From Candidatus Erginobacter occultus (GTDB lineage Bacteria > Auribacterota > Erginobacteria > Erginobacterales > Erginobacteraceae), in contig JAVCCZ010000040.1 in NCBI GenBank assembly GCA_030765265.1, forward strand, positions 1 to 59,606: 59,606 nucleotides of DNA. The letters are read 5' to 3'. This document shows positions 12,416-29,217 of the stretch, in pieces (position 1 is the first letter of the stretch; each line of letters opens with the position of its first letter). Both the position numbers and the translations under genes were made by a program. The notes beneath the pieces were generated by a model. It worked only from the letters and a program-made list of their open reading frames with translations. It did not search any database and was not told the origin of the DNA.

Positions 12416-12436
12416 GTGATCGGTAATCAGTAATCG
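12416..12436. repeat. tandem heptamer array, 3 units, opposite orientation (GTGATCG GTAATCA GTAATCG)
   Basis: Read directly. It lies between convergent genes and contains the epsI stop (12427-12429). It encodes ..ATDY. Confidence 0.85.
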
Positions 12437-13086
12437 GTGGCCTGGTCACTTTTCAGCAGGTACTGCTCGAGGGCGGGGAGGAGGGAGCGGGCGAAGTCGG
12501 CGACCATCTCGTCTCCGATCTCCGGGTCGAACGCCCCCTCCACCGAAACCCGGACCAGCAGCGCCGGCCGGGGCTCTCCCAGCAGGATATTGCCGATAAT
12601 CAGTAGCTGCTGGCGGTAATAGTCCCCGAGGATTGTCTCCCCGTAGGTATACCAGTAATAGACCAGGCTCTTCCCCCGCGGCCCGAGAAAGACCATCCGA
12701 TGGGCCGGAACCATCCCCCCCGCCCATTCGACGGACTTTTGGCCCCGCTCCACCATCTCGGTCCGGCCCCCAACGTAGCAGTACTTCGGGGGGTGGAAAC
12801 TCGCCCGGTTGGAGGAACACTCGAGGATATAGAGGTAGAGGAACCGGTCTCCCTGCCGGTAGAGGCGGAGGAGGAGGTTATCGGTCCCGAGAATCGCCCG
12901 GTCCCGGGCCGAGACCGGGATATCCTCCCCGCTCCAGTCCCCGATCTTCAGGGGAAGCCGGTCAAGGTCCCCGGCGGGGAGAATGTCCTCCCGCCCCCGT
13001 TCGAGCAGCCAGCCCAGGAACCCGGACGCCAGGACCAGGAAGAGACAGCAGAAATATGCCCGCCTTCCGGTTAACGGAGCAGCCAT
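12427..13086 (-). CDS. epsI: exosortase-associated EpsI family protein
   Basis: N-terminal TM segment, then LPLKIGDWSGEDIPVS, FHPPKYCYVGG and LVYYWYTYGE, as in EpsI. Overlaps the exosortase stop by 16 nt. Confidence 0.75.
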   Translation of the reverse strand: MAAPLTGRRAYFCCLFLVLASGFLGWLLERGREDILPAGDLDRLPLKIGDWSGEDIPVSARDRAILGTDNLLLRLYRQGDRFLYLYILECSSNRASFHPPKYCYVGGRTEMVERGQKSVEWAGGMVPAHRMVFLGPRGKSLVYYWYTYGETILGDYYRQQLLIIGNILLGEPRPALLVRVSVEGAFDPEIGDEMVADFARSLLPALEQYLLKSDQATDY

Positions 13087-13946
13087 CGCGCCACCTGAAG
13101 AAAGATTAAGAAACAGAACAGGAAGATCCCGATCCCCAGAGCGATATGCCAGAACCCGGAGAGGATACCCGGCCCGGCCGTCTGGCGGAGAACGATCAGG
13201 CTGACGACCCGGAGGAGGTTGCTTAAGGGGGCGAGCAGCACGGCGGCCGCGAAGAGAACCGTCCGGCGGGGAAAGCTCAAGGGGAGGAGGAGTGCGAAAA
13301 ACCCGCCCAGGGCGCCGAAGGAAAAGAGCGACCGCAGTCCGCTGCAGGGGTCCCCGATCTTCAAGGTCTCCCCGGGGGGGCCGGAGGGAAGAATAATCTC
13401 GATCCCGCTGTGGACAATCGGGATTCCCAGCAATCTCCCCAGGGCAACCCCGGCGTCGACGGCCGCGGTCTTGAGCCGGAAAGTGATGGCGATGATCCAG
13501 ATCCCCGGGAGCGGGATCATCAAGACGGTCAAGAGCAGCGGTCCGACCAGGTACCGGGCCCGGCCGAAGCCGAACCGGGCCAGGACCAGGCTGAAGACCA
13601 CCACCGGCAGCGCGGCCGCGGAAAGAAAGTTGATCCCGAATAACCGGGCCAGGAGATGAAGGGCCAGAGCCGGGACCAGGATGACCAGGCCGGACCGGCT
13701 CGGCCGGGGGGGGACGGCGAGGATAAGCTCCCGGCGCCGGTAGATCAGGAACGCGATTGCCGCCGGGATCAGCCAGCCGTGGCCGTAATAGGAGTTCTCC
13801 TCGAAAAACCGGGCGTTCATCCAGACCAGGGTGGGATAGAACAGGAAGATGACCGCGGCCGCCATCAGGGAAAAGGAGGCGATCATTTTTCCCCGACCGG
13901 AGCAGCCTCCGCTCTCCCCGGCAACGGCAAGGGCGACCGGTCTCAT
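13071..13946 (-). CDS. exosortase (EpsH/Xrt family transpeptidase)
   Basis: Polytopic protein with IGDPCSGLRSLFSF (catalytic Cys), NLLRV (Arg) and FWHIALG (His). The start is set at the ATG at 13944-13946, which forms an ATGA overlap with the deacetylase stop. The track ORF runs to 14030. Confidence 0.85.
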   Translation of the reverse strand: MRPVALAVAGESGGCSGRGKMIASFSLMAAAVIFLFYPTLVWMNARFFEENSYYGHGWLIPAAIAFLIYRRRELILAVPPRPSRSGLVILVPALALHLLARLFGINFLSAAALPVVVFSLVLARFGFGRARYLVGPLLLTVLMIPLPGIWIIAITFRLKTAAVDAGVALGRLLGIPIVHSGIEIILPSGPPGETLKIGDPCSGLRSLFSFGALGGFFALLLPLSFPRRTVLFAAAVLLAPLSNLLRVVSLIVLRQTAGPGILSGFWHIALGIGIFLFCFLIFLQVARWLLR

Positions 13947-14728
13947 CGCCCCTCCTCCCCCGGCCGGCGGTGGCGGAGCCGGAAGAGATCCCGCAGGGAT
14001 TCGGCCAGGTAGATCTTCCCGTACCCCCACCCCCGGCCGGAGAGGAGGGCCCGGAATTCTCTTGTGGAGATCCCGGCCCGGATCGGAAACCGGCGGAGCC
14101 GGAAGGGATCGGTCCGGAGAGTATTGAAGCCCGGACGGGAGGTGCAGAGCCCGCGGTAGCCGGCCCTGCGGGCCAGCCGGGGAAGGGCCGGGGGCAGGTA
14201 GCCCCGGGGGAGGGAGAAATGTTCCGCTTTCAGGGCGAGATTTTCCGCCAGCAGCCGGCGGGACTCCTCCAGTTCCCAGCGGAGGTCCGTCTCACCCCGC
14301 TGGGCCATCAGTTCGTGGTTAAGACCGTGGGAACCGATCTCCATCCCGGCGTCCCGGAGCCGGGCGGCCTCATCCCAGGTCAGCATCCCCGGCCGGCCCA
14401 GGTGGGAGACACTGAGGAAGAAGGCGGCCCGGAAGCCAAAGGAACGAAGCAGGGGAAAGGCATCCGTGAGGTTATCGGCGTAGCCGTCGTCGAAGGTCAG
14501 GATGACCGGACGGGGAGGAAGCTTCCCCCTCCCCTCGCGGGCCGCAGCCAGGTCTTTCGGGAGGATCGGAGTCCAGGCGCCGGAGAGAAGGACGGAGAGG
14601 TGGTCTGAGAAAACCGCCGGGGAGACCCGGTAGCCGATCGGCCGGCAGGCGGGGGGGAGTTCCCCGTACTCCCCGGAGTCGGAGACGCTGTGGTACATCA
14701 GGATGGGAATATTTAACCGCGGGTTCAT
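13943..14728 (-). CDS. polysaccharide deacetylase family protein
   Basis: ILMYHSVSD, ILTFDDGYADN and GSHGLNHE motifs (NodB fold). Confidence 0.85.
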   Translation of the reverse strand: MNPRLNIPILMYHSVSDSGEYGELPPACRPIGYRVSPAVFSDHLSVLLSGAWTPILPKDLAAAREGRGKLPPRPVILTFDDGYADNLTDAFPLLRSFGFRAAFFLSVSHLGRPGMLTWDEAARLRDAGMEIGSHGLNHELMAQRGETDLRWELEESRRLLAENLALKAEHFSLPRGYLPPALPRLARRAGYRGLCTSRPGFNTLRTDPFRLRRFPIRAGISTREFRALLSGRGWGYGKIYLAESLRDLFRLRHRRPGEEGR

Positions 14729-14808: not shown

Positions 14809-15690
14809 CTATTTGGGACTCTGGCGAAGTTTATCCCCCGCCGGCCGGAACTCGAAGAGGGTGATCTCCGGCGGGCAGAGGAACCGGACCGGGAGCGCCT
14901 TGGGGGCGATCCCCCGGTTGACATAAAGGACCCCTCCCCCGAGGGAGTAGAGTCCCCGGATATACTTCGACCGGCCGAAATACCGGTGAAAGATCGCCGG
15001 CCAGCCGGGCAGACCGATCAAACCCCCGTGGGTATCCCCGGAGAGGACCAGGTCGGCGCCTCTCTCGATCAGCAGCGGGGCCAGGTCGGGGTCATAGGAG
15101 AGGAAGATCAGGGGCGCTCCGGCCGGCAGGTCTTCCAGGATACGGTCGATCTTTTCCGTCACCCCCGGAACCTCGTAACCGGGGAAATCGATCCCCGCCA
15201 GGTAGAATATCTCCCCCCGCCGTCCGGCCATCGGCAGGCATTTTCCTCCGACCAGGGAGAGGCCGGCCCGCTTCCATCGCTCTTCATACCCTCCCGGGGG
15301 CAGGTAGATCCGGTCGGAATTGCCGAGGATGGCGTAACTCCAGATCCGGGGACGGAACTTTTTTACCAGTTCCTCCACCAGTTCCGGGGCCGCGGCTTCC
15401 ACCAGGTCGCCGGTGATCAGGATGATATCCGGTTCGATCCGGTTGAGCTTCCGGACCAGTTCCCTTTCCCGGAACCCCAGGCCGCCTTTCAGGTGGAGGT
15501 CGGAGATCTGGGCGATGGTCATCCCGGCCAGGGGCCCGGAGAGTCGTTCGTCCTCGATGATCACCCGCTCGACGACGATCCAGTTCGGCTCCAGAACCAG
15601 GGCGGTGAAGATGAGGAACCCGAGGACGGCGGCCGCCGAACCTCCGAACATAACCGCAACCAGCAGAATCTTTCGCCCCCTCCTCCTCAT
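14809..15690 (-). CDS. membrane-anchored metallophosphoesterase (calcineurin-like)
   Basis: N-terminal TM segment, then ISDLHL, ILITGDLVE and LSGDTHGG motifs. ATGA overlap with the upstream gene. Confidence 0.8.
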   Translation of the reverse strand: MRRRGRKILLVAVMFGGSAAAVLGFLIFTALVLEPNWIVVERVIIEDERLSGPLAGMTIAQISDLHLKGGLGFRERELVRKLNRIEPDIILITGDLVEAAAPELVEELVKKFRPRIWSYAILGNSDRIYLPPGGYEERWKRAGLSLVGGKCLPMAGRRGEIFYLAGIDFPGYEVPGVTEKIDRILEDLPAGAPLIFLSYDPDLAPLLIERGADLVLSGDTHGGLIGLPGWPAIFHRYFGRSKYIRGLYSLGGGVLYVNRGIAPKALPVRFLCPPEITLFEFRPAGDKLRQSPK

Positions 15691-17174
15691 TCGACCGTGA
15701 TCGTCCCCACCTCCCAGTTTTGGATCTCGAGATTGGTATAGGGCTGCTTGATGTAGTCAACCGGCCCTTCCGCCTGCATCACGTTGATCACCTCCTGCCG
15801 CCCGTCGTAGGCCATCCAGTCATCGATCTTGACATAACCACTTCCCGGGGAATCGGCGACGACATAGAGACCGGCCCGGACGACATAGGTCCCGGGGGGG
15901 GCGTCGGCCGAAATCATCAGGGGTCCGGAATCGACCGCCGCCTCCTCGTTCAACCGCCAGTTCCGGATCGGGGGAGTGAGACCGACGTCGGAACCGATAT
16001 TACCGGCCATATCGTTGACCCGGTAAACGTGGGTAAAGAGCTTATGGCGCTGAAAGATCGGCTGGTCGATAGTGAAGATGAACCGGATCAGGAAGGGACG
16101 GCCCCGCTCGACCTCTTCGGGCGCCTCCATCCGGACAAAGGTCACCGCCGGCTTCCCGGTCGGCTGGCCCCGGGAGATCAGCCGGAGGCCGGAGATATAG
16201 AAGGTGAAGGGGGTGGACGGGTTGACCAGGAAAAACTTTATCCGGCTGATCGCGCTGACGTTGATGGAACCGCTGAGATCGACCGTGGAGATCTCCAACC
16301 GTTCGGTCCGGCCCGAGGCCAGGGGGAAGGTTTTCTCGTAAACCCGTCCCGACCGGTCGGTAATCTGGAACCGCAAACTCCCCCCGCGGTTATCCGGGGG
16401 AAGATGTAGATTGAGCCGGAGGGTGTCGTAGGTCGACCAGTCGGCCCGGTCGGGGCGGAGGTTGAAGAAATTCTGAAGGATCACCCCCGGGTACTCGGCC
16501 ATCCCGGGGAGGATGGTAACCCGGACGGCGGAGACCGTCTCTTCGGCTTCGTCCTGGTAGCCCATAAACTCCACCCGCGCGCCCAGGGTCTCCCAGAAGA
16601 CGATCTCCGCCTCGCTGTCAAAGGCGATCAGGTCAAACTCGCTGGGACCATCCGGGTCGGCCCTTTCCGTAGCGGCCACCGTCAGCCGTCCGATGATGAA
16701 GTTCTCGATCTCGGGGTTGAGGTAGGGTTCCCGGACGTAGAGGACCACGTCCTCTTCCCGGACAATCCGGAGCAGGCCGGCCCGGATGTCGTATTCGCCC
16801 GGCTCGAGGTTGAAGGGGATCGCCAGGTCGAAGGGCCCCGCCTCCGCCACCTGGTTGACGTCCCAGCGCCGGGTGGAGTTGCGGGGGGAGAAATCGGCGT
16901 TGAGCACGGTATCGGTCTGCCCGGGGCGGACCAGGTGGAAGAATACCTTCAGGTTCTCCTCCAGGGGGCTGGTCGCCTTGAAGAAGAGGCTGCCGCTGAC
17001 CAGCTGCCCCTGGGCGATTACGGTTTGCAGGTTGAAACTGATCAATTCCAGCCGGGGGTCGCCATCCCGGACCTCGGTCCGGGAAGTCCCGTATCCCTGC
17101 CCGAAAAGGAGGTTGGGTAAAAGTGCCGGCAGGATAACCAGCGCCAATCCGGTTAACAGCGCCATCTTTTTCAT
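15687..17174 (-). CDS. secreted protein with two copies of an uncharacterised ~120-aa domain
   Basis: Signal peptide MKKMALLTGLALVILPALLPNLLFG. The internal repeat ends in PGEYDIRAGL...PYLNPEIENFIIGRLTV and PGTYVVRAGL...PYTNLEIQNWEVGTITV. Confidence 0.7.
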   Translation of the reverse strand: MKKMALLTGLALVILPALLPNLLFGQGYGTSRTEVRDGDPRLELISFNLQTVIAQGQLVSGSLFFKATSPLEENLKVFFHLVRPGQTDTVLNADFSPRNSTRRWDVNQVAEAGPFDLAIPFNLEPGEYDIRAGLLRIVREEDVVLYVREPYLNPEIENFIIGRLTVAATERADPDGPSEFDLIAFDSEAEIVFWETLGARVEFMGYQDEAEETVSAVRVTILPGMAEYPGVILQNFFNLRPDRADWSTYDTLRLNLHLPPDNRGGSLRFQITDRSGRVYEKTFPLASGRTERLEISTVDLSGSINVSAISRIKFFLVNPSTPFTFYISGLRLISRGQPTGKPAVTFVRMEAPEEVERGRPFLIRFIFTIDQPIFQRHKLFTHVYRVNDMAGNIGSDVGLTPPIRNWRLNEEAAVDSGPLMISADAPPGTYVVRAGLYVVADSPGSGYVKIDDWMAYDGRQEVINVMQAEGPVDYIKQPYTNLEIQNWEVGTITVE

Positions 17175-17258
17175 TGTCCTTCCCTCGGCCGACGGCCGGT
17201 TGCGGAGATCGTTGAACTAAGATCCTTAGCCCTAAATTTTTTCCGAGAAAATTTTATA

Positions 17259-18293
17259 TCACATCCCGCCCCCGGCGGTCACGTTAATTTCCGAAACCTG
17301 GAAGCCCTCGATCTCCGGGTTGTCGTAGGGCTGGAAGACCAGCTCCTCCCCCCGGACGCTGAAAACCGGCTGGGCGAGGATCGCCTCCAGGTCGTAGGTG
17401 CCGGGCGGGAGGGCGGCGGGGATTGCCACCGGGAACGGTCCGACCTTGGCCAGCCGGCCCGGACGCCAGCGGCTGGTCGGGGTGGGAGGGTCGATCCGGC
17501 CGAGCGGGAAGAGGGTTTCTCCTTGGCGGAGCCGGAGCAGGAGGGTATTGTCGCCCGAGAGCTGACGGTTAACCAGGAAATAAAAGACCGCCTCCACCTC
17601 TTCCCCCGGCCGGACCGACGAGGGAAACTGCAGCCCCATAAACTTGACCAGCCCGGCGGGGGGGCGGGGAAGACCGGGGGCGGGGAAGGAGAAATCGATC
17701 AGGTAGAGGTCGGTGGCGGTGGCCGGCTCCCAGAGGAAGAGATTGAGATAACCGACCCGGCTCAGGTCGAGCCGGGAAGCGATGTCCCGGACCGGCACCG
17801 TGACCGCCGTCCGGGTCCGGGCCGGGATCTCCTGGTCCCGCTGGAAGCTGTGCCCGGAGGTATCCTTGACCTTGATCTTGAGGTTGACCGTCCAGGTCTG
17901 GGGGTTATAGACCGAGAAGGAGAGACTCTCCGCCCCCCGCCAGTCCATCACCCCCATCGTCTCGTCGGTCAGAAGCAGGCCGGGTGAGCCGGAAGGCCGG
18001 TAGGTGACCCGGACCCAGGTTTCATCCGTCCCCCAGAGCGCGGGGACCGCCTCCAAACTGGCCCCCGAAGTCTTCCAGACCTCCAGGTCCCCCGGATCGG
18101 CGAAGGAGAAGCTGACACCCGCCATCTCCCGGGGTTTGAAGACCGAGACCAGGGCCTGGGGTTCCCGCTTCAGCCGGCGGAAAAAACCGGGGATATTTCC
18201 CAGCCGTTCCCGGAAGAAAAGGAGAAGAACGACGACGATCAGGAACCCCCAGAGCAGGTGGAGTGAGAGCCGGAATAAACTTTTTCTTTCCAT
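17259..18293 (-). CDS. membrane-anchored protein carrying a third copy of the same domain
   Basis: N-terminal TM segment LHLLWGFLIVVVLLLFF. The C-terminus reads PTSRWRPG...GPFPVAIP...PPGTYDLEAIL...PYDNPEIEGFQVSEINV. Confidence 0.65.
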   Translation of the reverse strand: MERKSLFRLSLHLLWGFLIVVVLLLFFRERLGNIPGFFRRLKREPQALVSVFKPREMAGVSFSFADPGDLEVWKTSGASLEAVPALWGTDETWVRVTYRPSGSPGLLLTDETMGVMDWRGAESLSFSVYNPQTWTVNLKIKVKDTSGHSFQRDQEIPARTRTAVTVPVRDIASRLDLSRVGYLNLFLWEPATATDLYLIDFSFPAPGLPRPPAGLVKFMGLQFPSSVRPGEEVEAVFYFLVNRQLSGDNTLLLRLRQGETLFPLGRIDPPTPTSRWRPGRLAKVGPFPVAIPAALPPGTYDLEAILAQPVFSVRGEELVFQPYDNPEIEGFQVSEINVTAGGGM

Positions 18294-18574
18294 CTCCAGA
18301 CCAATAATGTTATGCTTTTAAACTGAAATAAACGGTGGTTGCCCCTTTGCCGACTCTGGCGGGATAACAGGCAACCGGAAGATAGCAAATTACCCCGTGA
18401 TTGTCAAATCGCCCCTCGCGTGCAGTCGGTGAGAAAAGTTCTCTTTACAAGATACTCCGCTATGGGATACATTGCATTCTCGAAGATGACATCAGGCAGC
18501 GGACCGGGGAGTTCAATCCCGCTCCCTTCCGCTACTTTATAATTATTATTGGGGTATCGGGGAGGCTTCAGGCA

Positions 18575-19402
18575 ATGCTCAAGACATCTGTCGGAATCAT
18601 CACTTCCATATTTCTGCTCGCCGGGATCTTTTCCCCCGCCCGGCTGGGCGCCCAATCCGCGGAAAAGGCCGATCGCACGGGGCTGGAGAGCGTCTGGAAG
18701 AAGTCGGGGCGGACGACCGGGGTGATTGATTACCCTTACAGCCCCCAGCCGGGAATTTACGGGGGGAAGACCGTCCGGGAGTGGGGAAACCGGGGCTATA
18801 TCTTCATCAACCCGCGGGCCGATGAGTTTATCCGCCGCCGGCCGTCCCCCAAGATCGACCGGGAAGAGGTCGTCCTGGAAACCGAGGACTGCCGGGAAGT
18901 CCGCGAGGGACTGCTCAACGAGGTCGCCGCCAACGAACAGCTCCGCCGGGAACGAGACCGGCTGTCGGAAGAACTCCAGACGGCGGAGCAGATCGCCGAG
19001 GACCGGGGGCTGATGATCGAGGCCCTGGAATTCCAGATCGAGGAACTGGAACCCGCTTCCGTCCCCGCCGGCGCCTGGACCGAACCCCGGACTGCCGACC
19101 GCGGCCCGGATGCGCCGGGATCGTCGGTCGAGCAGGTCGGCACTTATATGGTCAGGGAGGGCGACAGTCTCTGGAAGATCGCCGGCCTGCCCGGGATCTA
19201 CAACGATCCCTATCGCTGGCTCCTCCTCTATCACGCCAACCGGGACCAGATCTTCCTCCCCGATTTGATCTACCCGGGGATGGTCCTCCTGGTCCCCCGT
19301 TACCGGGAACTGGAGGAAAAGACAACCCCGCTCCCGGATGTTGAGCCGGGCGCGGAAGAAGCCGAAGCATTGGAAGTCACCCCCGATTACGAGGAAGAAT
19401 AA
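18575..19402 (+). CDS. secreted coiled-coil protein with a C-terminal LysM peptidoglycan-binding domain
   Basis: The start is moved to the ATG at 18575 (GGGGAGG upstream). Signal peptide MLKTSVGIITSIFLLAGIFSPARLGAQS. LysM: YMVREGDSLWKIAG...YPGMVLLVP. Its TAA stop abuts the next ATG. Confidence 0.75.
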   Translation: MLKTSVGIITSIFLLAGIFSPARLGAQSAEKADRTGLESVWKKSGRTTGVIDYPYSPQPGIYGGKTVREWGNRGYIFINPRADEFIRRRPSPKIDREEVVLETEDCREVREGLLNEVAANEQLRRERDRLSEELQTAEQIAEDRGLMIEALEFQIEELEPASVPAGAWTEPRTADRGPDAPGSSVEQVGTYMVREGDSLWKIAGLPGIYNDPYRWLLLYHANRDQIFLPDLIYPGMVLLVPRYRELEEKTTPLPDVEPGAEEAEALEVTPDYEEE

Positions 19403-21481
19403 ATGGCGCGGATCAAGCTATTCAGCCGGGTAGTTCGGATCGCGGTCGTCCCGGCGGTTCTCTTCTGCCTCCCGGTCATTTCCGCCCGCTCCCAGACCGG
19501 ATCCTACGGGAGAGAGTACGCCGTCAGCCTGGAGAACTCGCTGCAATCCAAGCTCGACAACCTGATCGGGCCCCGCCGGAGCATCGTCAGCGTCGAGGTC
19601 ACCGTCTCCGACCCCTTTGCCCGCCGGGACGAAGACGCCGCCCGGGTGCTGGAAAGGCTGCCGGGGATCCGGATCCGGCAACCCGACCCCGGCGCGGAGA
19701 TGATGACCAGCCCCATCTCCAGCATCCATATCGCGGTCGAAGTCGATGAAGGCCTTCCCCCGGAGGATATCGGGACCGCGGAAGAGCCGGGAAGGATCCA
19801 GGAAGCCGTGGCCCGCTGGGCCCGGCTCAACCGGACCCGGGGCGATACCCTCCAGATCATCCCCCGACCGGCCGGATATTTCGCCCCCCCGCCCGAAGAT
19901 AAGCAGAGCTATATCCTCTATTCCCTCCTCGCCCTGATCGCCCTTTTGATCCTGATCGCCGCCATCTACTTCCCGATGCGGAAGGCGAAGGGAGGGGGAG
20001 GAGGCAGCGGCGAGGGCGGGGTGGTAGTCGGAGGGATGAAACTTTCCGAGGAAGAACGCAAACAGCGGCGGGCCGAGCTGGAAGAACTGAAGAAAGCCCT
20101 CTCCGGGATCTCCAGCGACACCCGGGAAGCCACCCTCTCCGGGATCAAGGAACTGATGGAACTCCAGGTCGGGGGGGGCGGCGGCGGCGGGCGGGTCGAT
20201 GTCGGCATCCTCGAAGAAATCCGCGACCTTTTGAGCAGCCCCGCCCAGGAATCGGACGCGCTGCTGACCGAGATGAGGGATACCCTCTCCGATCTCCTCG
20301 ACGAGCAGCGGAGACGCGGAGGGGGCGGAGGAGCCGCGCCCGGCGCCCCGGCGGCGGCCCCGGGAACGGCCCCGGCGGCCGCTGCCGCTTCGGCGGGGGA
20401 AGGAGGTTTCGGCGGTGGCGGCGGCGGTGGACAGGTCATCCAGGTTCTGGGCAACCTGGAGGAACTGATGACCCAGCAGCTGGAGCGGGCCCCCAGCCTG
20501 GTCGACCAGCCCTTTAAATACATCAAGTCAACCGACCCGGAGGATATCATCCTTCTGATCAAGGACGAGGAGCCGAAACTGGCGGCGGCCGTCCTCTCCC
20601 AGCTCGACCCCCAGACCTCGGCCTCGGTCTTCGAGGCGCTCGACGAGGAAAAACAGTTCGAGATGGCCCGGGCGATGACCCAGTTGACCGAGGAAGAGGA
20701 TATGGCCGACGAGATCAAGGACTTCCTGGAGCGGAAGCTGAAGATCGTCCGCCTGCGGAAGGACTACCAGCCGGTGACCGGGGTCCGGGTCCTGGCGGAT
20801 ATGCTCTCCTCCAGCCGCTACGCGATGGCCAAGGTTTTGCTGGAGAAGATGGAAGGGAAGAACCCGGCGATGGCCGCCGACGTCCGCAAAAGGATGTTCC
20901 TCTTCGAGGACATCAAGACCCTGGAAGATAAGGACGTGGAGACCCTGATCCACAACCTGAACATCGAGGTCCTGGCCGCCTCTTTGGTTGACGTCCCCGA
21001 AGACGTCAGCTCGAAGTTCTTGAAGAATATGACCGAGAAGGGCCGCGCCCGGCTGGAAGAGGATATGGAGGCGGTCAAGAAGGTCCAGATCGAGGAAGAG
21101 GGGCAAGAACTTCCCTTCAACGAGGCGATGCTGGCCGTCGACCAGTCGATTATCGACGAGATCTTCCGGACCATTGACCGGACCACCTTGAAGATGGCGC
21201 TGCGGGGGGGCTCGGAAGAGGTCCAGTCGAAGTTCTTCAGCGGGTTGACCGAGCGGGCGGCGGCGATGCTCAAGGAAGACCTGACGGTGATGGGAGGTAT
21301 CCCCCACTCCCGGGCGGTGGAGGCCCAGGAAGAGATTATGGAGGTGCTGCGGAAACTCTCCAGCAAGACCCTCTCCGCCCAGCACGAGATCATCGCCGTC
21401 ATCCGCAAGCTCTCTCACGACGGCCTGATCACCGTCCCCCACTTCCAGGACGAGGCCGGAAAAGAATCCGAGGAAAAATGA
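19403..21481 (+). CDS. membrane-anchored FliG-domain protein (FliF/YscJ-like periplasmic module, TM helix, Gly-rich linkers, FliG middle and C-terminal domains)
   Basis: Residues ~370-450, FKYIKSTDPEDIILLIKDEEPKLAAAVLSQLDP..., parallel E. coli FliG ..LIRDEHPQIIATIL... MFLFEDI is at 498-504. IDRTTLKMALRGGSEEVQSKFFSGLTERAAAMLKEDL...AQEEIMEVLRKL parallels the FliG C domain. The second TM helix is at ~169-192. Confidence 0.75.
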   Translation: MARIKLFSRVVRIAVVPAVLFCLPVISARSQTGSYGREYAVSLENSLQSKLDNLIGPRRSIVSVEVTVSDPFARRDEDAARVLERLPGIRIRQPDPGAEMMTSPISSIHIAVEVDEGLPPEDIGTAEEPGRIQEAVARWARLNRTRGDTLQIIPRPAGYFAPPPEDKQSYILYSLLALIALLILIAAIYFPMRKAKGGGGGSGEGGVVVGGMKLSEEERKQRRAELEELKKALSGISSDTREATLSGIKELMELQVGGGGGGGRVDVGILEEIRDLLSSPAQESDALLTEMRDTLSDLLDEQRRRGGGGGAAPGAPAAAPGTAPAAAAASAGEGGFGGGGGGGQVIQVLGNLEELMTQQLERAPSLVDQPFKYIKSTDPEDIILLIKDEEPKLAAAVLSQLDPQTSASVFEALDEEKQFEMARAMTQLTEEEDMADEIKDFLERKLKIVRLRKDYQPVTGVRVLADMLSSSRYAMAKVLLEKMEGKNPAMAADVRKRMFLFEDIKTLEDKDVETLIHNLNIEVLAASLVDVPEDVSSKFLKNMTEKGRARLEEDMEAVKKVQIEEEGQELPFNEAMLAVDQSIIDEIFRTIDRTTLKMALRGGSEEVQSKFFSGLTERAAAMLKEDLTVMGGIPHSRAVEAQEEIMEVLRKLSSKTLSAQHEIIAVIRKLSHDGLITVPHFQDEAGKESEEK

Positions 21482-21678
21482 TCAAGTTAACCAGGCTCAA
21501 CGGGCAGGAACTGGTCATCAACGCCGAGATGATCGAGCGGATGGAGGCCAAACCGGACACGATCATTACCCTGACCACCGGGGAACAGTATATCGTTCAG
21601 GATTCAGTCGATCAGATTATCGCCAAGGTTACCCATTACAAGCAGGAGATCAACCTCCCGCAAAAGAACCAACCATAG
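21478..21678 (+). CDS. flbD: FlbD family protein
   Basis: MIKLTRLNGQELVINAEMIERMEAKPDTIITLTTGEQYIVQDS matches the FlbD signature. 4-nt overlap with the upstream gene. Confidence 0.8.
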   Translation: MIKLTRLNGQELVINAEMIERMEAKPDTIITLTTGEQYIVQDSVDQIIAKVTHYKQEINLPQKNQP

Positions 21679-21689
21679 GGTAAAGCACT

Positions 21690-22442
21690 ATGCGCCTCAG
21701 TACCATCCTCGGCTTCATCGTTGGAATAACGGTTATTTTTCTTTCCATCTATCTCCGCGGCCCGGAGATGCTCCCTTACTTTCTCAACCCACCCTCGTTC
21801 GTGATCGTCTTCGGGGGGACGGCGGCCGCGGTGATGATCAACTTCAGTTTCTACCAAATCGTCAGCGGCCTCAAGGCCTTCCGTTTCACTATGGTCGGGA
21901 AGGTGATGGACCCGGAAGCGGTGATCAACCTGATCGTGGAGATGGCGGTCAAGGCGAGGAAGGAAGGCTTTATGTCGATCCGGGATCTCTCGACCAAGGG
22001 CCGCTATCCCCTGCTCGACATCGGGGTCGACCTGGTGGCCGACGGGACCGACCCGGGGATCACCCGGGGGATTATGGAGACGGTCTCCGACTACCTGCAT
22101 ATGAAGATCGGCGCCGACGAGCGGCTCTGGCGGGATGTCGGGGTCTACGCCCCGCTTTACGGGATGGTCGGGACCCTGATCGGGCTGATTATGCTCCTGC
22201 GGACCCTGACCGATCCCCAGACCATCGCCCCGAATATGTCGGTCGCCCTGATGACCACCTTCTACGGGATTCTCTTCGCCGGGATGATCTGTATGCCGGT
22301 GGCGGGGAAGATCCGGGTCTATAATACCAATATGGCCCTGTCCCGGGAGATCATCATCGAGGGGATCGCCTCGATCCAGGCCGGCGACAACTCTCAGATC
22401 GTCCGGGAGAAGCTCCGCGCCTACCTGGCCGGCCGGCAGTAA
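21690..22442 (+). CDS. motA: MotA/PomA-type stator channel protein
   Basis: Four-TM layout. APLYGMVGTLIGLI and ALMTTFYGILFAGMICMPVAGKI carry the two conserved prolines of MotA. Confidence 0.88.
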   Translation: MRLSTILGFIVGITVIFLSIYLRGPEMLPYFLNPPSFVIVFGGTAAAVMINFSFYQIVSGLKAFRFTMVGKVMDPEAVINLIVEMAVKARKEGFMSIRDLSTKGRYPLLDIGVDLVADGTDPGITRGIMETVSDYLHMKIGADERLWRDVGVYAPLYGMVGTLIGLIMLLRTLTDPQTIAPNMSVALMTTFYGILFAGMICMPVAGKIRVYNTNMALSREIIIEGIASIQAGDNSQIVREKLRAYLAGRQ

Positions 22443-22497: not shown

Positions 22498-23313
22498 ATG
22501 GCCGACGATACCGAACTCACCCCCCAGGTCGAACACGAGCGGTTCGCCATTGATTCCGGGAGCGAGGGCATCGGACGCGACTGGCCCCCGGATTGGATGG
22601 TCACTTACTCCGATATGACCACCATCCTGATGACCTTCTTCGTCCTCTGGTATTCCCTGACCGTGGCCGGGATCGACGAGGACCTGCTGAAGATGCGGGA
22701 ACAGGATGACGCCGATATCGTCCGGGGGATGGCCGAAGAGAGCCAGATGGATTTCGTCACCGAGGAGGAGTACCGGATCCTGACCCAGTTCCAGCTCCTC
22801 CCCCGCGAGCAGCAGGAGACCGTCCTCTCCGAGTTGGGGACCCTGCGGCTGAAGGCGGAAGAGGTGATGGAGTTTGTCCGGATGGGGAGGATGGAGGGCG
22901 ACGTCGAGCTTAAGGTGACGGCGGAGGATATCGTGATCATCCCCACCGCGCCGCTGGTCTTCCGGGAAGGCCGGGCGGAAATCCGGGAGACTTTCTACCC
23001 CATACTCGACAAGATCGCCTGGCTGATCGAGGAGACCGGGGCCTCGGTCCGGATCGAGGGGCATACCGACTCGACCCCGATCCACCCCCGACACCGGCAG
23101 AGGTTTCCCAGCAACTGGGAACTCTCCGCCACCCGGGCGATCGCGGTCGCCAATTATTTCATCGACCGGGGCGATATCCCCCCTGAACAGATATCGGCCG
23201 CCGCCTACGGCCCTTCCCGGCCCAAGTATCCCGACGACGATCCCGAGCTGAGGGGGCGCAACCGCCGGGTTGAATTCCATATCTACCTTGGATCCGAGAC
23301 GGCCGGGAGTTGA
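22498..23313 (+). CDS. motB: MotB-type stator protein (OmpA-like peptidoglycan-binding C-terminus), paralogue 1
   Basis: DWMVTYSDMTTILMTFFVLWY (TM helix with the conserved Asp). EGHTDSTP...SNWELSATRA...NRRVEF (OmpA-like). The start is set at the ATG at 22498, after GGAGGAG. Confidence 0.85.
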   Translation: MADDTELTPQVEHERFAIDSGSEGIGRDWPPDWMVTYSDMTTILMTFFVLWYSLTVAGIDEDLLKMREQDDADIVRGMAEESQMDFVTEEEYRILTQFQLLPREQQETVLSELGTLRLKAEEVMEFVRMGRMEGDVELKVTAEDIVIIPTAPLVFREGRAEIRETFYPILDKIAWLIEETGASVRIEGHTDSTPIHPRHRQRFPSNWELSATRAIAVANYFIDRGDIPPEQISAAAYGPSRPKYPDDDPELRGRNRRVEFHIYLGSETAGS

Positions 23314-23332: not shown

Positions 23333-24157
23333 ATGCCTCACAGGAGAGCGAAAACCGACCCGGATAGCGGATCCTCCGACTGGCCGCCGGAGTGGATGAC
23401 CACCTACTCCGATATGGCCACCTTGATGATGACTTTCTTCATCATCCTCTCCACGATGCTGGCCTTGAAGATCCCGGTGACCTGGATCGCCGGGGACCGG
23501 ATGATCCAGTTGAGCGACCGGAGAATCGAGGACGCGATCGACGTCGAGCTGAGCCGGGAGGAGCAGGAACTCCTGGAGAGAATCCGGGATCTGCGGGAAC
23601 AGCAGATGCGGGAGCTGGCCAAGATCGACGAGATGCGGCGGATGGCCAAGGAGATCCAGCAGTACATCATCGACGCCAACTTAAGCCGCTTTGTCCGGGT
23701 CGACGTCAGTAAGTGGAAGCTGAAGATCGTCCCCCTCGCCCCCTTCCTCTTCCGCCCCGCCTCCGCCGACCTGAGGCCGGAGGGGAAGGTGTTCCTCGAC
23801 CTGCTGGCCCGGGTCTTTCTTCACGGCCCGGACGCCGAGGTCCGGATCGGGGGGCATACCGACGACATCCCGATCAACACCCCCCGCTACCCTTCCAACT
23901 GGGAGTTGAGCTGCGCCCGGGCGACCTCGGTGATGCGCTACCTGATCGACGAACACGGGGTCGAGCCCGCCATCCTCAGCGCAATCGGCTACGGCCCCCA
24001 CCAGCCGGCGGCGTCCAACGAGACCCCCGAAGGAAGGGCGATGAACCGGCGGGTGGAAATCGAGATCGTTCAGCGCCCGGGAGATTCCCTGGGATCGCTG
24101 TCCGCCGCCGCCGGCTCCGAACCCGCGGAATCGGCCCTGAACGCGGGCCGGGATTGA
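23333..24157 (+). CDS. MotB-type stator protein, paralogue 2
   Basis: EWMTTYSDMATLMMTFFIIL and GGHTDDIPI...SNWELSCARA...NRRVEIEI. The start is uncertain: ATG at 23333, or TTG at 23270 overlapping paralogue 1. Confidence 0.8.
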   Translation: MPHRRAKTDPDSGSSDWPPEWMTTYSDMATLMMTFFIILSTMLALKIPVTWIAGDRMIQLSDRRIEDAIDVELSREEQELLERIRDLREQQMRELAKIDEMRRMAKEIQQYIIDANLSRFVRVDVSKWKLKIVPLAPFLFRPASADLRPEGKVFLDLLARVFLHGPDAEVRIGGHTDDIPINTPRYPSNWELSCARATSVMRYLIDEHGVEPAILSAIGYGPHQPAASNETPEGRAMNRRVEIEIVQRPGDSLGSLSAAAGSEPAESALNAGRD

Positions 24158-24372
24158 GTGATCTCGTTCTGTTCCCGGTAGACCCTGGCCATCTTTTTAA
24201 TCCCCCGGCCCAGGACCAGGCCGAGCAGAATCCCCACCGCCGCTCCCAGGATTAAAACCGCCGCGATCCTTCCCCGGGAGAGCCGGGGGATCTTTTCCTC
24301 GGCCCGACCGCCGGCCACCCGGGTCTTGACCCGGATCTTCCGTTTTTCTTCAACTGGTGGCAATTCGTTCAT
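24070..24372 (-). CDS. possible small single-TM protein
   Basis: MNELPPVEEKRKIRVK...IAAVLILGAAVGILLGLVLG. Its 3' end overlaps motB2 convergently by 88 nt, and it has no recognisable family. Confidence 0.3.
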   Translation of the reverse strand: MNELPPVEEKRKIRVKTRVAGGRAEEKIPRLSRGRIAAVLILGAAVGILLGLVLGRGIKKMARVYREQNEITQSRPAFRADSAGSEPAAADSDPRESPGR

Positions 24373-25576: not shown

Positions 25577-26407
25577 CTACAGTCTCTTGCCGGCCATTCG
25601 TTGCCAGAGGCGGTGGGGAAGATCGAAACCGCCCCGGAGCTTCAAGAGAAAATCTTCCCGGTCATCATCGCCCGAGATCTCGGTCCGCCGGAGCAGAAAG
25701 AGATCTCCGTCCGGCCGGTTGACCCCCGGGCGGACGGTCACCGCCCCCCGGTAGCCGGCAGCCCGGACCAGTCCGGCGAGGACGGAATCGGCCTTTCCCC
25801 GCGGATAGGCGAACCACTCCGGGCGCGTACCCAGCTTCCGCTCGATCACCGCCGCGCTTTCGACGATCTCCGTCTCCGCCTCGGCCCGGTCCAGGCCGGT
25901 CAGCTCGCGGTGGGACAGGGAATGGGAACCGACCTCCACCCTCCCCTTCCCCATCTCGGCCAGCATCTCCCAGGAAAGTGAACGGGAGATTTCCCCCCTC
26001 CCCCGGTAGCGGTCGAGTTCGACCCGGCCCTCGATGAAACCGGGAACGACAAAGACCGTCGCCGGCAGGGAGCGCCGCCTTAAAATGGGGAAGACATTAT
26101 CATAAAAATCCCGGTATCCGTCATCAAAAGTCAGAACCACCGCCGGTTCCCTCCGTTCTCGATCCGGCCCGCCGCCGGCAAAGGCCGCGGAGAGGGTCTT
26201 CACCGGCCGGCCGCTCTGGAGGAGAAGATCCATCTGCCGGGCAAACTCCCCCGGGACCACGGCCAGCCGGTCCCCAGGGATCTCGGCCACCCGGTGATAC
26301 ATCAGAACCCGGACCTCGCCGGCCCGGCGTCCGGCGGGCGCGAGGGACGCCAAGCGGGGGAGAACCTTCCGTAACCGCCTCCGGAAAAACAAATCAAGCG
26401 CACTCAT
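25577..26407 (-). CDS. polysaccharide deacetylase family protein
   Basis: VLMYHRV, VLTFDDGYRDF and GSHSLSH motifs. The start is moved to the ATG at 26405-26407. The track ORF extends into the upstream gene. Confidence 0.8.
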   Translation of the reverse strand: MSALDLFFRRRLRKVLPRLASLAPAGRRAGEVRVLMYHRVAEIPGDRLAVVPGEFARQMDLLLQSGRPVKTLSAAFAGGGPDRERREPAVVLTFDDGYRDFYDNVFPILRRRSLPATVFVVPGFIEGRVELDRYRGRGEISRSLSWEMLAEMGKGRVEVGSHSLSHRELTGLDRAEAETEIVESAAVIERKLGTRPEWFAYPRGKADSVLAGLVRAAGYRGAVTVRPGVNRPDGDLFLLRRTEISGDDDREDFLLKLRGGFDLPHRLWQRMAGKRL

Positions 26408-27500
26408 AATATAGTTCCCGGTACCTTCGACACATCGCCTCCAGGGTAAAATCCTCCCTGACCCGTTTCTCTCCCGCCCGGCCGAGCCGTTGGCGCATCC
26501 GGGGATTCCGGGCCAGTTCTTCGATCCGGGCCGCCAGCCGCTGACGGTCCCCCGGGGGGACCAGAAAACCGCTCTCCCCCGCGACAATCACTTCCGGGTT
26601 GGCCCCGACCGCTGAGGCGATCACCGGGCGACCCCGGACCATCGCCTCGATCAGGGAGTTGGAGAACCCTTCGGCCAGGGAGGGGAGGACATAGATGTCC
26701 AGAGCCCGAAGGAACTCCCCCGGTTGGGCCGTCTCCCCGGAAAAACTGACCCGCCCGGCCAGCCGCTCGCCCCGAACCAGCTCCCCCAGTTCTTCCCGGC
26801 AACCGGGATCCAGCGTCCGACCGGCCACCCGGAGCTCCCAGTCGATCTCCGGGGGAAGCAGACGCAACGCCTCCAACAGGAACCGGTATCCCTTGACCGG
26901 CCGGATGTTGCCGAGGGCCCCGATGACGATCCTCCCCGCCTCCCCGGCGGGGCGGGCCGGGTTCTCTTCCCCGCCCGGCACCTCGACCCCGTTGTAGATC
27001 AGGGCAATCTTTCCCGCTCTCACCCTTTCCCGGCGACGGAGGTACTCGACCACCTCCCGGGAGTTGGCGGTGATCTTCCGGGTCAGGGGGTTGACCGCGC
27101 GGTGGGCAAGGATATGGCGGCCGGTCTTCCAGAAGCCGGTGTCCCGGCGGCTGGTGATCACCGGGGTCCCGGTAAGGAAACCGGCCGGGGGAGCGACCAG
27201 GTTGGCGGCGAAGAGATAGGAGTGGACCAGATCGATCTCTCGCCGGCGGATGATCTCTTTTAAACCCGCGACCGCCCGGAGAAACCGGGAACCGATTATG
27301 TTCTCCAGTTCCAGAGATTCCACCCCGATCCCCTCCCCCGCCAGTTCCGCCGCCAGCGGGCCTTTCTTCAGCAGGCAGCAGAGAACCGGCACGATCTCCC
27401 GGCGGTCGAAGCGGGGCAGCAACTCCCGCAGATGGCGCTGGGCCCCCGCCCGGACCATCTTGTCGATCACGTAGAGGATTCTTCGGGGCCGGGAGGTCAT
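26394..27500 (-). CDS. family 4 glycosyltransferase (GT-B)
   Basis: RILYVIDKMVRAGAQ N-terminus and EGFSNSLIEAMVRGRPVIASAVG. The start at 27498-27500 forms an ATGA overlap with the upstream stop. Confidence 0.85.
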   Translation of the reverse strand: MTSRPRRILYVIDKMVRAGAQRHLRELLPRFDRREIVPVLCCLLKKGPLAAELAGEGIGVESLELENIIGSRFLRAVAGLKEIIRRREIDLVHSYLFAANLVAPPAGFLTGTPVITSRRDTGFWKTGRHILAHRAVNPLTRKITANSREVVEYLRRRERVRAGKIALIYNGVEVPGGEENPARPAGEAGRIVIGALGNIRPVKGYRFLLEALRLLPPEIDWELRVAGRTLDPGCREELGELVRGERLAGRVSFSGETAQPGEFLRALDIYVLPSLAEGFSNSLIEAMVRGRPVIASAVGANPEVIVAGESGFLVPPGDRQRLAARIEELARNPRMRQRLGRAGEKRVREDFTLEAMCRRYRELYYECA

Positions 27501-28105
27501 TCCTGGATTTCCGGGCGGAGAAGAACCGTCTCCCCTTCCCGGAGGTAACTCCGGCCGCACCGCCGGCAGAGAGCCGATCTATCCCGGAAATCCAGCCGCT
27601 CGCCGCAGGCGCAGATCCACCCCCGGAGGCCGGCCGGGTTGCCGTAAACCAGGGCAAAATCCGGGACGTCCCGGGTCACCACCGCCCCGGCGCCGATGAA
27701 GGCCGAGCGCCCGATCGTCCGACCGCAGACCACGGTAGCGTTGGCCCCGATGCTGGACGAGCGCTTGACCAGGGTCTTCAAGTAAAATCCGCTCCCCCGC
27801 TGGGGAAACTCGCTCCGGGGGTCAAGGACGTTGGTGAAGACCATTGAGGGGCCGCAGAAGACGTAATCCTCCAGTTCCACCCCCTCGTAAACCGAGACGT
27901 TGTTCTGGATCTTGACGTAATCGCCGATTTTCACGTTACCGGCGATATTCACATTCTGCCCGATCGAGCAGCCCCGCCCGATCCGGGCCCCCGGCTGGAT
28001 ATGGCTGAAGTGCCAGATCTTGGTCCCCTCCCCGATCTCGGCCCCGGGGTCGACGTAACTCGATTCGTGGACGAAATAACCGCCATCTGCTGTTTTTTCG
28101 GTCAT
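27497..28105 (-). CDS. left-handed beta-helix (hexapeptide) N-acetyltransferase, WbpD/WxcM-like, with a C-terminal Cys4 ribbon
   Basis: Hexapeptide repeats IGEGTKIWHFSHIQPGARIGRGCSIGQNVNIAGNVKIGDYVKIQNNVSV. C-terminal CACGERL...CRRCG. Confidence 0.8.
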   Translation of the reverse strand: MTEKTADGGYFVHESSYVDPGAEIGEGTKIWHFSHIQPGARIGRGCSIGQNVNIAGNVKIGDYVKIQNNVSVYEGVELEDYVFCGPSMVFTNVLDPRSEFPQRGSGFYLKTLVKRSSSIGANATVVCGRTIGRSAFIGAGAVVTRDVPDFALVYGNPAGLRGWICACGERLDFRDRSALCRRCGRSYLREGETVLLRPEIQE

Positions 28106-28125: not shown

Positions 28126-28193
28126 AACCGCGGATTGAGCGGATTGGGCGGATTATTTTCTTTCAATCAGCATAATCCGCCGAATCCGTGGTT
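28126..28193. repeat. REP-A element: three GCGGATT nonamers plus an inverted partner (AACCGCGGATT...AATCCGTGGTT)
   Basis: Read directly. It fills the gap between the oxidoreductase stop and the acetyltransferase start, and is homologous to 42894-42955 and 8818-8850. Confidence 0.8.
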
Positions 28194-29217
28194 ATTTCTT
28201 CTCGGCCGCGCTGCCGAGTTCGATCGCCCGGCCGCCTTCTTCCAGGGAGCGCTGGGCGGCTTCCAGGACCGCGACCACCGCCAGGCCGTTGCGGCCGTCG
28301 GTCAGCGGGCGGTGGCGTTTTTTGACGCAGTCCAGGAAGTGGCCGGTCTCGGCCCGCAGGGGCTCCCCGGCCTTAACCCAGGGGATCTGGACATCCCCGT
28401 AGCGGAGGTTGAGATACTCCCCGTAAGTATCGTAGGCCAGGTTCTCCGGGACCCCCTTGTCGTAGATCCGGATCGGCTCGGCGCCGGCCATATCGTCGAA
28501 GACCAGCATCTTTTTCGACCCGACAATGGTCAGCTTCCTCACCTTGTGAGGGTCGAGCCAGCTGACGTGAAGGTGGGCCATCACCCCGTCGGCGAAGCTG
28601 ATGGTGATGAAGGCGACGTCGGCCACCCGGTCCTGAATATAGGACCCCCCCCGGGCGGAGACCGCCGCCGCCGGGCGCCCGATCAGGTAGAGGGCGACCG
28701 AGACGTCGTGAGGGGCGAAGGTCCAGAGCGCGTTCTCGCTCCGGCGGATCTTGCCCAGGTTCAGCCGCTGGCTGTAGAGGTAATAGAGGTTGCCGATCGT
28801 CCCCGCCTCGACTTCCTCCTTCAGTTTTTCCACCGCCGGGTGGTAGAGCAGGAGGTGACCGACCATCAGGATCAGGTCCCGCTCCTCAGCCATTTGGCAG
28901 AGGTGCCGGCAGTCGGCGGCGGTCAGGGCCATCGGCTTCTCGACGAAGACATCCTTCCCGGCTTGCAGGCAGTCGCGGGCGATGGCGAAGTGGCTCGCAC
29001 CCGGGGTAGCCACCACCACGCCCTGAATATCCGGGTGGGAGAGGATATCGGCATAGTCATCGGTCAGGGTCATCTCCGGGTATTTCTCCCCGGCGGCGGC
29101 GCGGCGTTCTTCCACCTTGTCGGCGGCGATCAGTACCTCCGCCTCCGGCTGTTCCTGGAAGTTGCGGAGCAGATTCTTCCCCCACCCCCCGACCCCGATA
29201 ATTCCCAGCTTGATCAT
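28192..29217 (-). CDS. Gfo/Idh/MocA family oxidoreductase (WbpB-like nucleotide-sugar dehydrogenase)
   Basis: MIKLGIIGVGGWGKN Rossmann start and DVFVEKPMA. Paired with the LbH acetyltransferase. Confidence 0.82.
   Translation of the reverse strand: MIKLGIIGVGGWGKNLLRNFQEQPEAEVLIAADKVEERRAAAGEKYPEMTLTDDYADILSHPDIQGVVVATPGASHFAIARDCLQAGKDVFVEKPMALTAADCRHLCQMAEERDLILMVGHLLLYHPAVEKLKEEVEAGTIGNLYYLYSQRLNLGKIRRSENALWTFAPHDVSVALYLIGRPAAAVSARGGSYIQDRVADVAFITISFADGVMAHLHVSWLDPHKVRKLTIVGSKKMLVFDDMAGAEPIRIYDKGVPENLAYDTYGEYLNLRYGDVQIPWVKAGEPLRAETGHFLDCVKKRHRPLTDGRNGLAVVAVLEAAQRSLEEGGRAIELGSAAEKK

Follow-up and report, generated by a model that had tools for sequence, protein, structure and literature searches.

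A natural FliF RBM3-FliG fusion with its own MotAB genes in an exopolysaccharide locus: candidate rotor of a reduced, non-flagellar motor

In the flagellum, ring-building motifs 1 and 2 of FliF (RBM1 and RBM2) and the collar hold the export gate and the rod, and the N-terminal domain of FliG (FliG_N) binds FliF's C-terminal tail. Non-flagellar motors of the 5:2 type (ExbBD, TolQR, GldLM, AglRQS, ZorAB) have known outputs such as gliding adhesins and spore-coat polysaccharide; to our knowledge, none of them uses a FliG-type rotor, and coupling runs via the B-subunit or a TonB-, TolA- or GldM-like partner. A natural covalent FliF-FliG fusion has been described in the Chlamydiaceae, as a protein of ~330 amino acids with RBM2, one uncharacterised RBM-like segment and FliG_M only (Bergeron 2016, PMC4768692). 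In the laboratory, Salmonella FliF-FliG deletion fusions without most of FliG_N are motile, and a Gly-rich linker at the joint improves their behaviour (PMC7355467). Our full-text literature search for a non-flagellar FliG-MotAB system or a natural FliF(RBM3)-FliG system returned engineered fusions and the chlamydial case only, and a recent survey notes unexplained rotor proteins in non-motile genomes (PMC12199754). Here we describe a 692-residue FliF-FliG fusion encoded on a 59,606-nucleotide stretch of Candidatus Erginobacter occultus (contig JAVCCZ010000040.1), which we analysed as a whole and call the window; coordinates refer to it unless another locus is named. The periplasmic domain of this protein is homologous to RBM3 of FliF, the builder of the S-ring, and its C-terminal half consists of FliG_M and, behind it, a tandem pair of FliG_C torque modules. 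We consider it probable, at roughly 60%, that the fusion is the single-polypeptide rotor subunit of a reduced, flagellar-motor-derived but non-flagellar machine acting at the cell surface.

The locus has much in common with the flagellar FliF/FliG rotor and its MotAB or PomAB stator: RBM3 followed by the second transmembrane helix of FliF (TM2), then FliG_M and FliG_C with an MFXF hinge and a charged torque helix, a PomA-type MotA, MotBs with plug, Asp32 equivalent and peptidoglycan-binding domain, and an adjacent FlbD/SwrD gene. However, it differs in being one polypeptide without RBM1, RBM2, beta-collar, FliG_N or the EHPQR motif, in a doubled FliG_C and in two MotBs, and it sits in a locus for polysaccharide synthesis with no export, rod, hook, switch or filament genes nearby. 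Among natural proteins, the Chlamydiaceae fusion comes nearest, being likewise a covalent and shortened FliF-FliG from a PVC-group bacterium in a genome context without a full flagellum. Its published description nonetheless sets it apart, since the present protein has RBM3 only, FliG_M plus two FliG_C and its own stator genes, whereas no dedicated MotAB has been described for the chlamydial one. The engineered Salmonella and Vibrio fusions resemble the present protein in their covalent FliF-FliG joint, and show that a motor can function with one, but they were made in the laboratory, carry the FliF periplasmic domains at full length and belong to a complete flagellum. With the 5:2 motors the likeness lies in the proposed logic, in which an inner-membrane ion motor would power a process in the periplasm, at the outer membrane or at the surface; in contrast to these systems, the present MotA groups with flagellar stators and its partner would be a FliG torque module.

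The fusion occupies 19403-21481 on the + strand and contains no internal stop codons. An initial annotation made from the sequence alone had singled it out, and on re-check the open reading frame (ORF) and all the residue positions given there proved exact, including the four Gly runs (197-201, 257-263, 306-310, 337-343), the FliG-like stretch FKYIKSTDPEDIILLIKDEEPKLAAAVLSQLDP at 371-403 with EEPK at 389-392, MFLFEDI at 498-504, and R618, E625 and D626. The protein is laid out as follows.

19403..19489, + strand: signal peptide or anchor, residues 1-29 (hydropathy peak 4-30; cleavage before Gln31 likely)
19490..19897, + strand: periplasmic FliF RBM3-like domain, residues 30-165 (AlphaFold, Foldseek, hhalign)
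19907..19978, + strand: single transmembrane (TM) helix, equivalent of FliF TM2, residues 169-192 (hydropathy, conservation, hhalign)
19982..20497, + strand: cytoplasmic tether, residues 194-365 (composition and low predicted local distance difference test score, pLDDT)
20498..20893, + strand: FliG_M and M-C helix, residues 366-497 (Pfam, alignment with T. maritima FliG)
20894..21118, + strand: FliG_C module 1, with MFLFEDI hinge, ARM_C, torque-type helix and beta-hairpin connector, residues 498-572 (hhalign)
21119..21367, + strand: FliG_C module 2, with degenerate hinge PFNEAML, ARM_C and torque helix, residues 573-655 (hhalign; best Pfam stretch 575-654)
21368..21481, + strand: possible extra copy of the last FliG helix, acidic tail and stop codon, residues 656-692 (weak match to a hidden Markov model, HMM)

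Hydropathy shows two peaks only, at ~4-30 and 167-195, and Q31 is invariant in all 27 homologs, behind an A/S-rich −3/−1 region. For residues 30-165 the initial annotation had proposed an alpha-beta-beta-alpha-beta order and a resemblance to FliF ring-building motifs. The AlphaFold model, computed from a 27-member alignment, agrees with the order: the domain runs alpha-beta-[insert]-beta-alpha-beta over residues ~34-155 with a core pLDDT of 70-88. The insert, which replaces the beta-collar, has ~36 residues with a conserved LPG motif and is modelled as one helix at low confidence, and a FliF-type RGDT motif stands just before the last strand. The resemblance could be narrowed from the RBM fold to FliF RBM3 by three approaches. 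In Foldseek against the PDB, the 17 top-ranked matches of the domain-only model were without exception S-ring/RBM3 chains of Salmonella or Vibrio FliF (E 4.4e-4 to 1.6e-2, probability at least 0.98, TM-score ~0.5), with PrgK and EscJ ranking far below FliF; when the full-length model was used, such FliF chains formed the second tier after FliG. The Vibrio S-ring structures 8z4d and 8z4g are among the Foldseek matches. In hhalign, the domain alone aligned with FliF at a probability of 97.9% (E 5.1e-13) and a broader family profile that included the TM helix at 99.2% (E 3e-19), along a path that follows alpha1-beta1 of FliF, skips the collar, continues through beta2-alpha2-beta3 with the shared RGDT and ends in TM2. 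Finally, the domain profile was run exhaustively as an HMM against 1.84 billion representative proteins and retrieved 36, ten of which are ordinary FliF-type proteins, mostly of 510-560 amino acids, matched exactly at RBM3. Such methods were needed because the PDB sequence search with the N-terminal domain profile was empty. Word-indexed protein searches with diverse profiles of this domain gave zero or one match, and Pfam YscJ_FliF_C matched weakly in 7 of 18 homologs (best 5.5e-4). RBM1/RBM2 (the SctJ-homology region, from which FliF builds its inner ring around the export gate) are absent, the FliF alignment beginning at FliF ~230 with the ~30 preceding residues being signal peptide, and so is the beta-collar, which aligns to gaps in hhalign.

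Hydropathy also supports the TM helix that the initial annotation had placed at 169-192 (SYILY...YFPM). The segment LILIAAIYFPMRK is nearly invariant among homologs and aligns with FliF TM2 in hhalign. Beyond it lies the tether, ~170 residues of low pLDDT (38 Gly and 20 Ala in 173 residues; 22% Gly), in which four Gly runs and an Ala/Pro-rich stretch alternate with conserved helices. Its ratio of nonsynonymous to synonymous substitution rates (dN/dS) is 0.08-0.15, and conservation is strongest in the nearly invariant segment 266-305 (GILEEIRDLL...LLTEMRDTLSDLLDEQRR), with invariant columns from L270 to L299. This segment (20198-20317) is a helix pair with a repeated motif of the type [IL]LE[ED]I[KR]..L (GILEEIRDLL ... 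LLTEMRDTL), recognisable too in the distant proteins P0031, P0034, P0038 and P0046, and it may be a partner-binding or inter-subunit site. In full-length hhalign alignments the tether is colinear with the FliF C-tail and FliG_N. Taken by itself as a degenerate form of either, it was not significant (E 0.017-0.26, probability <3%). The canonical FliG HMM has no match before position ~104 in ~20 fusion lineages and matches from 106 in the window protein, where the Pfam FliG_N match (1.2e-3) overlaps FliG_M. The observation of no recognisable FliG_N therefore stands, and the idea that the covalent joint makes FliG_N dispensable is consistent with the natural fusions that lack it and with the motile engineered Salmonella deletion fusions (PMC7355467).

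For the C-terminal half, Pfam gives FliG_C at 4.5e-35, FliG_M at 1.2e-12 (residues 379-447) and MgtE_N at 6.3e-6. Among solved structures, T. maritima FliG_MC (1lkv, 2.6e-30) matches best, in two pieces, 369-516 and 586-653, so that an insertion is already apparent. Against ten canonical FliGs from flagellar loci, the family alignment reached a probability of 99.8% in hhalign (E 5.5e-30); the NCBIfam FliG equivalog TIGR00207 scored 149.6 bits, below its cut-off of 226.7. A closer relationship to MgtE_N, which the initial annotation had put up for checking, was rejected in favour of FliG by Pfam, the PDB and Foldseek, where an MgtE structure came only 41st (E 0.17). The insertion is a tandem duplication: copy 1 (~505-562) and copy 2 (~577-634) align with each other at a probability of 95.8% (E 7.9e-9), confirming the two consecutive torque segments noticed earlier, and each separately matches canonical FliG_C in hhalign (copy 1 E 2.1e-24, copy 2 E 1.9e-18). 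Each repeat begins with an MFXF-like hinge (MFLFEDI in copy 1, the degenerate PFNEAML in copy 2), continues with ARM_C and ends with the torque helix. In hhalign, another insertion, of 18 residues, falls in the last helix. Because the stretch 656-678 matches positions 306-328 of the FliG HMM (the C-terminal helix) weakly, with E 0.33 in the window protein and 0.0017-0.079 in homologs, a second small duplication at that helix is suggested and no more. We mapped residues onto the E. coli FliG sequence, checked at the known positions E125, R160, K264, R281, D288, D289 and R297. Copy 2 has R618/E625/D626 where E. coli has R281/D288/D289, and copy 1 has K546/E553/D554; most of ~20 divergent fusion lineages keep these equivalents. 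The FliM-binding EHPQ reads E-E-P-K and the R160 equivalent is Ala; this motif and R160 are lost in almost every fusion examined and kept (EHPQ, EHVQ or ERNQ, plus R160) in 11 canonical FliGs.

Twenty-six other 90%-identity clusters (686-710 amino acids, 51-93% identical), drawn from independent NCBI, JGI, ENA and Logan assemblies, share the full-length architecture, as do 11 syntenic genome loci, and the check for an assembly chimera of two genes was accordingly negative. Eleven GTDB species representatives carry it under the title "PVC group bacterium" or "uncultured bacterium", and one homolog is named Candidatus Auribacterota; the databases call the protein "FliG" or "FliG C-terminal domain-containing protein". 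Compared with three close orthologs, dN/dS is ~0.2 overall, 0.05-0.07 in FliG_M and 0.07-0.33 in each FliG_C copy, and many columns are invariant, in every domain of the fusion including the linker. In the flagellar loci retrieved, fliF lies next to fliG, so that a plausible origin would be a read-through fusion of the two, after which RBM1/RBM2 and the collar would have been lost.

The fusion is the second of six tightly packed genes on the + strand, in the order LysM protein, fusion, FlbD/SwrD, MotA, MotB1 and MotB2. The other features of this block are listed below.

18444..18473, + strand: promoter-like site in the gap 18294-18574 between divergent genes (9 of 12 matches in a sigma-70 consensus scan; weak evidence)
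18575..19402, + strand: LysM protein of 275 amino acids with signal peptide, coiled coil and C-terminal LysM (Pfam LysM 1.5e-4; NCBIfam 6.3e-8)
21478..21678, + strand: FlbD/SwrD-family protein of 66 amino acids (Pfam FlbD 1.6e-27; ATG overlaps the fusion stop; kept in 11 of 11 loci)
21690..22442, + strand: MotA, short PomA/MotP type (Pfam MotA_ExbB, MotA_N)
22498..23313, + strand: MotB paralog 1 (Pfam MotB_plug, OmpA; listed TTG 22462, likely start ATG 22498; Asp32 equivalent in WMVTYSDM)
23333..24157, + strand: MotB paralog 2 (Pfam MotB_plug, OmpA; listed TTG 23270, likely start ATG 23333; Asp32 equivalent in WMTTYSDM)
24270..24290, + strand: terminator-like hairpin (8-bp stem, 6 G-C pairs, T-rich tail; weak evidence)

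The stop codon of the LysM gene abuts the fusion ATG at 19403. All 10 Auribacterota-clade loci that cover the region upstream of the fusion keep the LysM gene there (L001-L008, L010, L011; L009 starts within the fusion gene and is hence outside the count), and the C-terminal part of its product is conserved also in the distant L022 and L023. MotA is of flagellar kind: it scores 1.2e-54 for PomA versus 4.7e-3 for TolQ in NCBIfam, matches flagellar MotA/PomA only in the PDB (best 3.2e-41) and keeps the equivalents of R90, P173 and P222. The NCBIfam equivalog scores of the stator proteins are all under their cut-offs. The two MotBs are 34-38% identical to each other, as judged from cross-matches to related loci. 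One MotA with two MotBs is an arrangement kept in the Auribacterota-clade loci that are long enough and in the distant L022 and L023, which suggests heterodimeric B subunits or two stator types. The order FlbD-MotA-MotB is found in clostridial flagellar clusters as well (L015, L018, L021). In B. subtilis, loss of FlbD/SwrD impairs torque, with MotA as its predicted, unvalidated partner (PMC13232269).

In each of the 11 genome loci that extend far enough, the six-gene block lies in the same exopolysaccharide (EPS)/exosortase locus, and L037 and L038 have the same six genes. In the window this locus comprises rmlABD-like genes, several glycosyltransferases, a Bac_transf priming transferase, deacetylases and a Wzx flippase, and the rest of the window holds housekeeping genes. 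Within the 59.6 kb we found no other flagellar gene and no recognisable Wza (Poly_export) or Wzc/Wzz export component. Two features on the − strand lie upstream of the block.

12427..14030, − strand: EpsI and XrtA-like exosortase, marking an EPS/PEP-CTERM locus (Pfam Exosortase_EpsH 1.8e-49, DUF3485; NCBIfam exosortase, EpsI)
15687-17174 and 17259-18293, − strand: two divergently transcribed, paralogous secreted proteins of 495 and 344 amino acids (N-terminal signal peptide or anchor)

The two secreted paralogs (15687-18293) have no match in Pfam, NCBIfam or the PDB and have in common a C-terminal motif, PY.NxEI..F.VG.I.V. One or both adjoin the cassette in the 8 Auribacterota-clade loci that reach upstream (L002-L004, L006-L008, L010, L011) and in the distant L023. 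In L023, a GH123-family protein has a module in common with them.

The search with the N-terminal domain also brought up many more distant proteins of the same design, with an RBM3-like domain, TM helix, low-complexity tether and FliG_MC in 430-670 amino acids. The MotA gene comes next in all seven distant fusion loci examined, and MotB too wherever the contig is long enough; the seven include P0044, P0056 and P0040, and in the last MotA was recognised by tblastn only, on a 3.7-kb contig. The carriers are metagenome-assembled genomes (MAGs) labelled Omnitrophota and Planctomycetia, Electryoneota and other MAGs, and giant surface proteins are often adjacent. P0031 and its relatives, from MAGs labelled Omnitrophota and Planctomycetia, combine a duplicated FliG_C with the block LysM-fusion-FlbD-MotA-MotB-MotB, which shares its polysaccharide locus with Wzy and a GGDEF regulator; P0033 is accompanied by FlbD, MotA, two MotBs and homologs of the two secreted paralogs. 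In L022, whose fusion has relatives in Omnitrophota-labelled MAGs, a histidine kinase and a GGDEF response regulator (6494-9160) lie directly upstream of LysM-fusion-FlbD-MotA-MotB-MotB, which hints at control of this block by cyclic di-GMP (c-di-GMP). A different setting surrounds P0050 and its relatives (L027/L030, OY769902.1, 9356-19196), with CoaE-fusion-MotA-MotB, a 1556-residue FG-GAP/CHU_C protein and a PorP/SprF-like outer-membrane protein with tetratricopeptide repeats (TPR). The Pfam match of the 1556-residue protein to CHU_C, a C-terminal domain of type IX secretion system (T9SS) type, is weak. This block recurs at 36-64% identity in six further loci (L031-L036), is complete in L032, L034 and L035 and partial where the locus is shorter, and has Ca. 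Electryonea clarkiae among its carriers; its FG-GAP and PorP/SprF neighbours are reminiscent of the SprB/SprF gliding pair. On the 2.9-Mb MAG chromosome that encodes P0047 (L025 1-13238, OZ218778.1), a 16,931-residue ORF and a UPF0164/TPR outer-membrane protein stand immediately upstream of fusion-MotA-MotB, and a PilZ-domain protein is nearby. None of the related loci retrieved has another flagellar gene beside the fusion.

How could such a protein work? In the flagellum, FliF forms a ring of about 33-34 subunits. Here, RBM3 contacts would assemble the subunits into a membrane ring, on whose cytoplasmic side the FliG_C modules would form a ring of their own. The MotA pentamers, turned by ion flow through MotA5MotB2, would push the charged torque helices and so rotate the ring. 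FliG_N would not be needed because FliF and FliG are covalently joined, and no FliM/FliN switch ring would be attached because the EHPQR motif is gone. With RBM1/RBM2 and the collar absent, the output would not be a flagellar filament. Because the block is constantly embedded in an exosortase/polysaccharide locus, the output might be a periplasmic or surface process tied to making, exporting or arranging a surface polymer, for which the GldLM or AglRQS motors that power surface adhesins would be the closest analogy. Among the distant relatives, giant adhesin-like proteins and PorP/SprF-like outer-membrane proteins adjoin the cassette.

Several points speak against a rotor of this kind. Ring formation, rotation and output are deduced from homology and gene neighbourhood, and it is synteny that suggests the link to polysaccharide. 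The Foldseek root-mean-square deviations to FliF are high, because the collar is missing, and the full-length model is of low confidence (mean pLDDT 57.6). The equivalent of FliG R297 is lost and the Glu98 position of MotA is Arg, with the acid moved by +1; the classical charge pairing would thus be preserved only in part. The LysM partner is peptidoglycan-binding and would oppose free rotation if it were fixed to the ring. In addition, the flagellar-gene negative covers the 59.6-kb window, so that flagellar genes are possible elsewhere in the host genome, and among the Auribacterota one MAG has been reported with flagella and others without. Regarding the stator interface, Arg followed by Asp or Glu (IRD/LRE) is found at MotA residues ~95-100 in all three clade MotAs compared (window, L007, L011); clostridial flagellar MotAs retain Glu at the Glu98 position. 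This points to a shifted charge pattern at the putative rotor-stator interface.

The alternative that survives best, although we judge it unlikely, is that the fusion does not rotate at all but serves as a scaffold or sensor, in which FliG_C docks MotAB, whose ion flux or load state would be sensed and used to control exopolysaccharide production, in the manner of mechanosensing or a clutch. The EPS locus would suit such a role, as would the c-di-GMP parts by the distant cassettes (the GGDEF response regulator of L022 and the PilZ protein of L025); the LysM partner and the OmpA domains of the MotBs would both anchor to peptidoglycan, and a long, flexible, Gly-rich tether fits rigid torque transmission poorly. 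However, a scaffold would leave unexplained why the RBM3 domain and the torque-helix charges are kept across very divergent lineages, why both torque modules are under purifying selection and why the torque-associated FlbD/SwrD is present, and neither Pfam nor NCBIfam finds an output or signalling domain in the fusion protein.

We regard it as improbable that the protein is a genuine but highly diverged membrane-supramembrane (MS) ring/FliG of a real flagellum whose remaining genes lie elsewhere in the genome. All recognisable parts are indeed flagellar, the FlbD-MotA-MotB order is that of the clostridial flagellar clusters, and both the window-bound scope of the negative and the Auribacterota MAG reported with flagella leave room for one. 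Yet RBM1, RBM2 and the beta-collar are missing together with the FliM-binding EHPQR, the gene never stands beside another flagellar gene, be it in related loci or in the window, and a relative occurs in Ca. Electryonea clarkiae, for which a complete, separate flagellar gene set has been reported (PMC9324843), so that the cassette there comes on top of it as a paralogous system. That the gene is an artefact of assembly or annotation, or the decaying remnant of a flagellum since lost, might have been suspected from the uncultured-organism assemblies, the low-complexity Gly/Ala runs and databases that say simply FliG, but is effectively refuted by the recurrence of the architecture in independent assemblies and 11 genomes at 51-93% identity, by tightly coupled gene junctions, and by the low dN/dS and invariant columns in every domain.

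Returning to the one-polypeptide rotor, the distant fusions allow a wider proposal that we put forward tentatively, at somewhat less than even odds: that there is a widespread class of non-flagellar rotary motors, each a one-polypeptide rotor with its own MotAB and without type III export, rod or switch. Members would power polysaccharide deployment in Auribacterota, in Omnitrophota-labelled and in some Planctomycetia-labelled MAGs, or the deployment of giant FG-GAP/CHU_C adhesins with PorP/SprF-like proteins in Electryoneota and relatives. If a surface rotor of this kind is real, the torque core of the flagellum (ring, FliG and MotAB) would exist as a self-contained unit without secretion apparatus, filament or switch, redeployed at the surface. 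This would bear on the evolutionary assembly of the flagellar motor and on how separable its rotor-stator and export modules are. It would also offer a naturally minimal one-protein rotor for structural and single-molecule work and point to a novel means by which poorly known phyla energise the deployment of polysaccharides or adhesins. On the practical side, the database label "FliG" can mislead genome-based predictions of motility.

Elsewhere in the window, the gene at 10177-11016 (+ strand), which lies upstream of the priming transferase, encodes a 279-residue protein with a long coiled coil and a single TM helix. Conserved in L007 and L010 as well as, in part, in L022, this protein may be a chain-length or co-polymerase-like component. 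Three ORFs that might be taken for unknown genes (2819-4000, 26404-27657 and 28135-29283) were rejected as spurious Pro/Gly/Arg-rich frames in a sequence of 62% GC. They overlie the following real genes.

2831-3925, − strand: M24 peptidase
26394-27560, − strand: GT4 glycosyltransferase
28192-29217, − strand: GFO/IDH/MocA oxidoreductase

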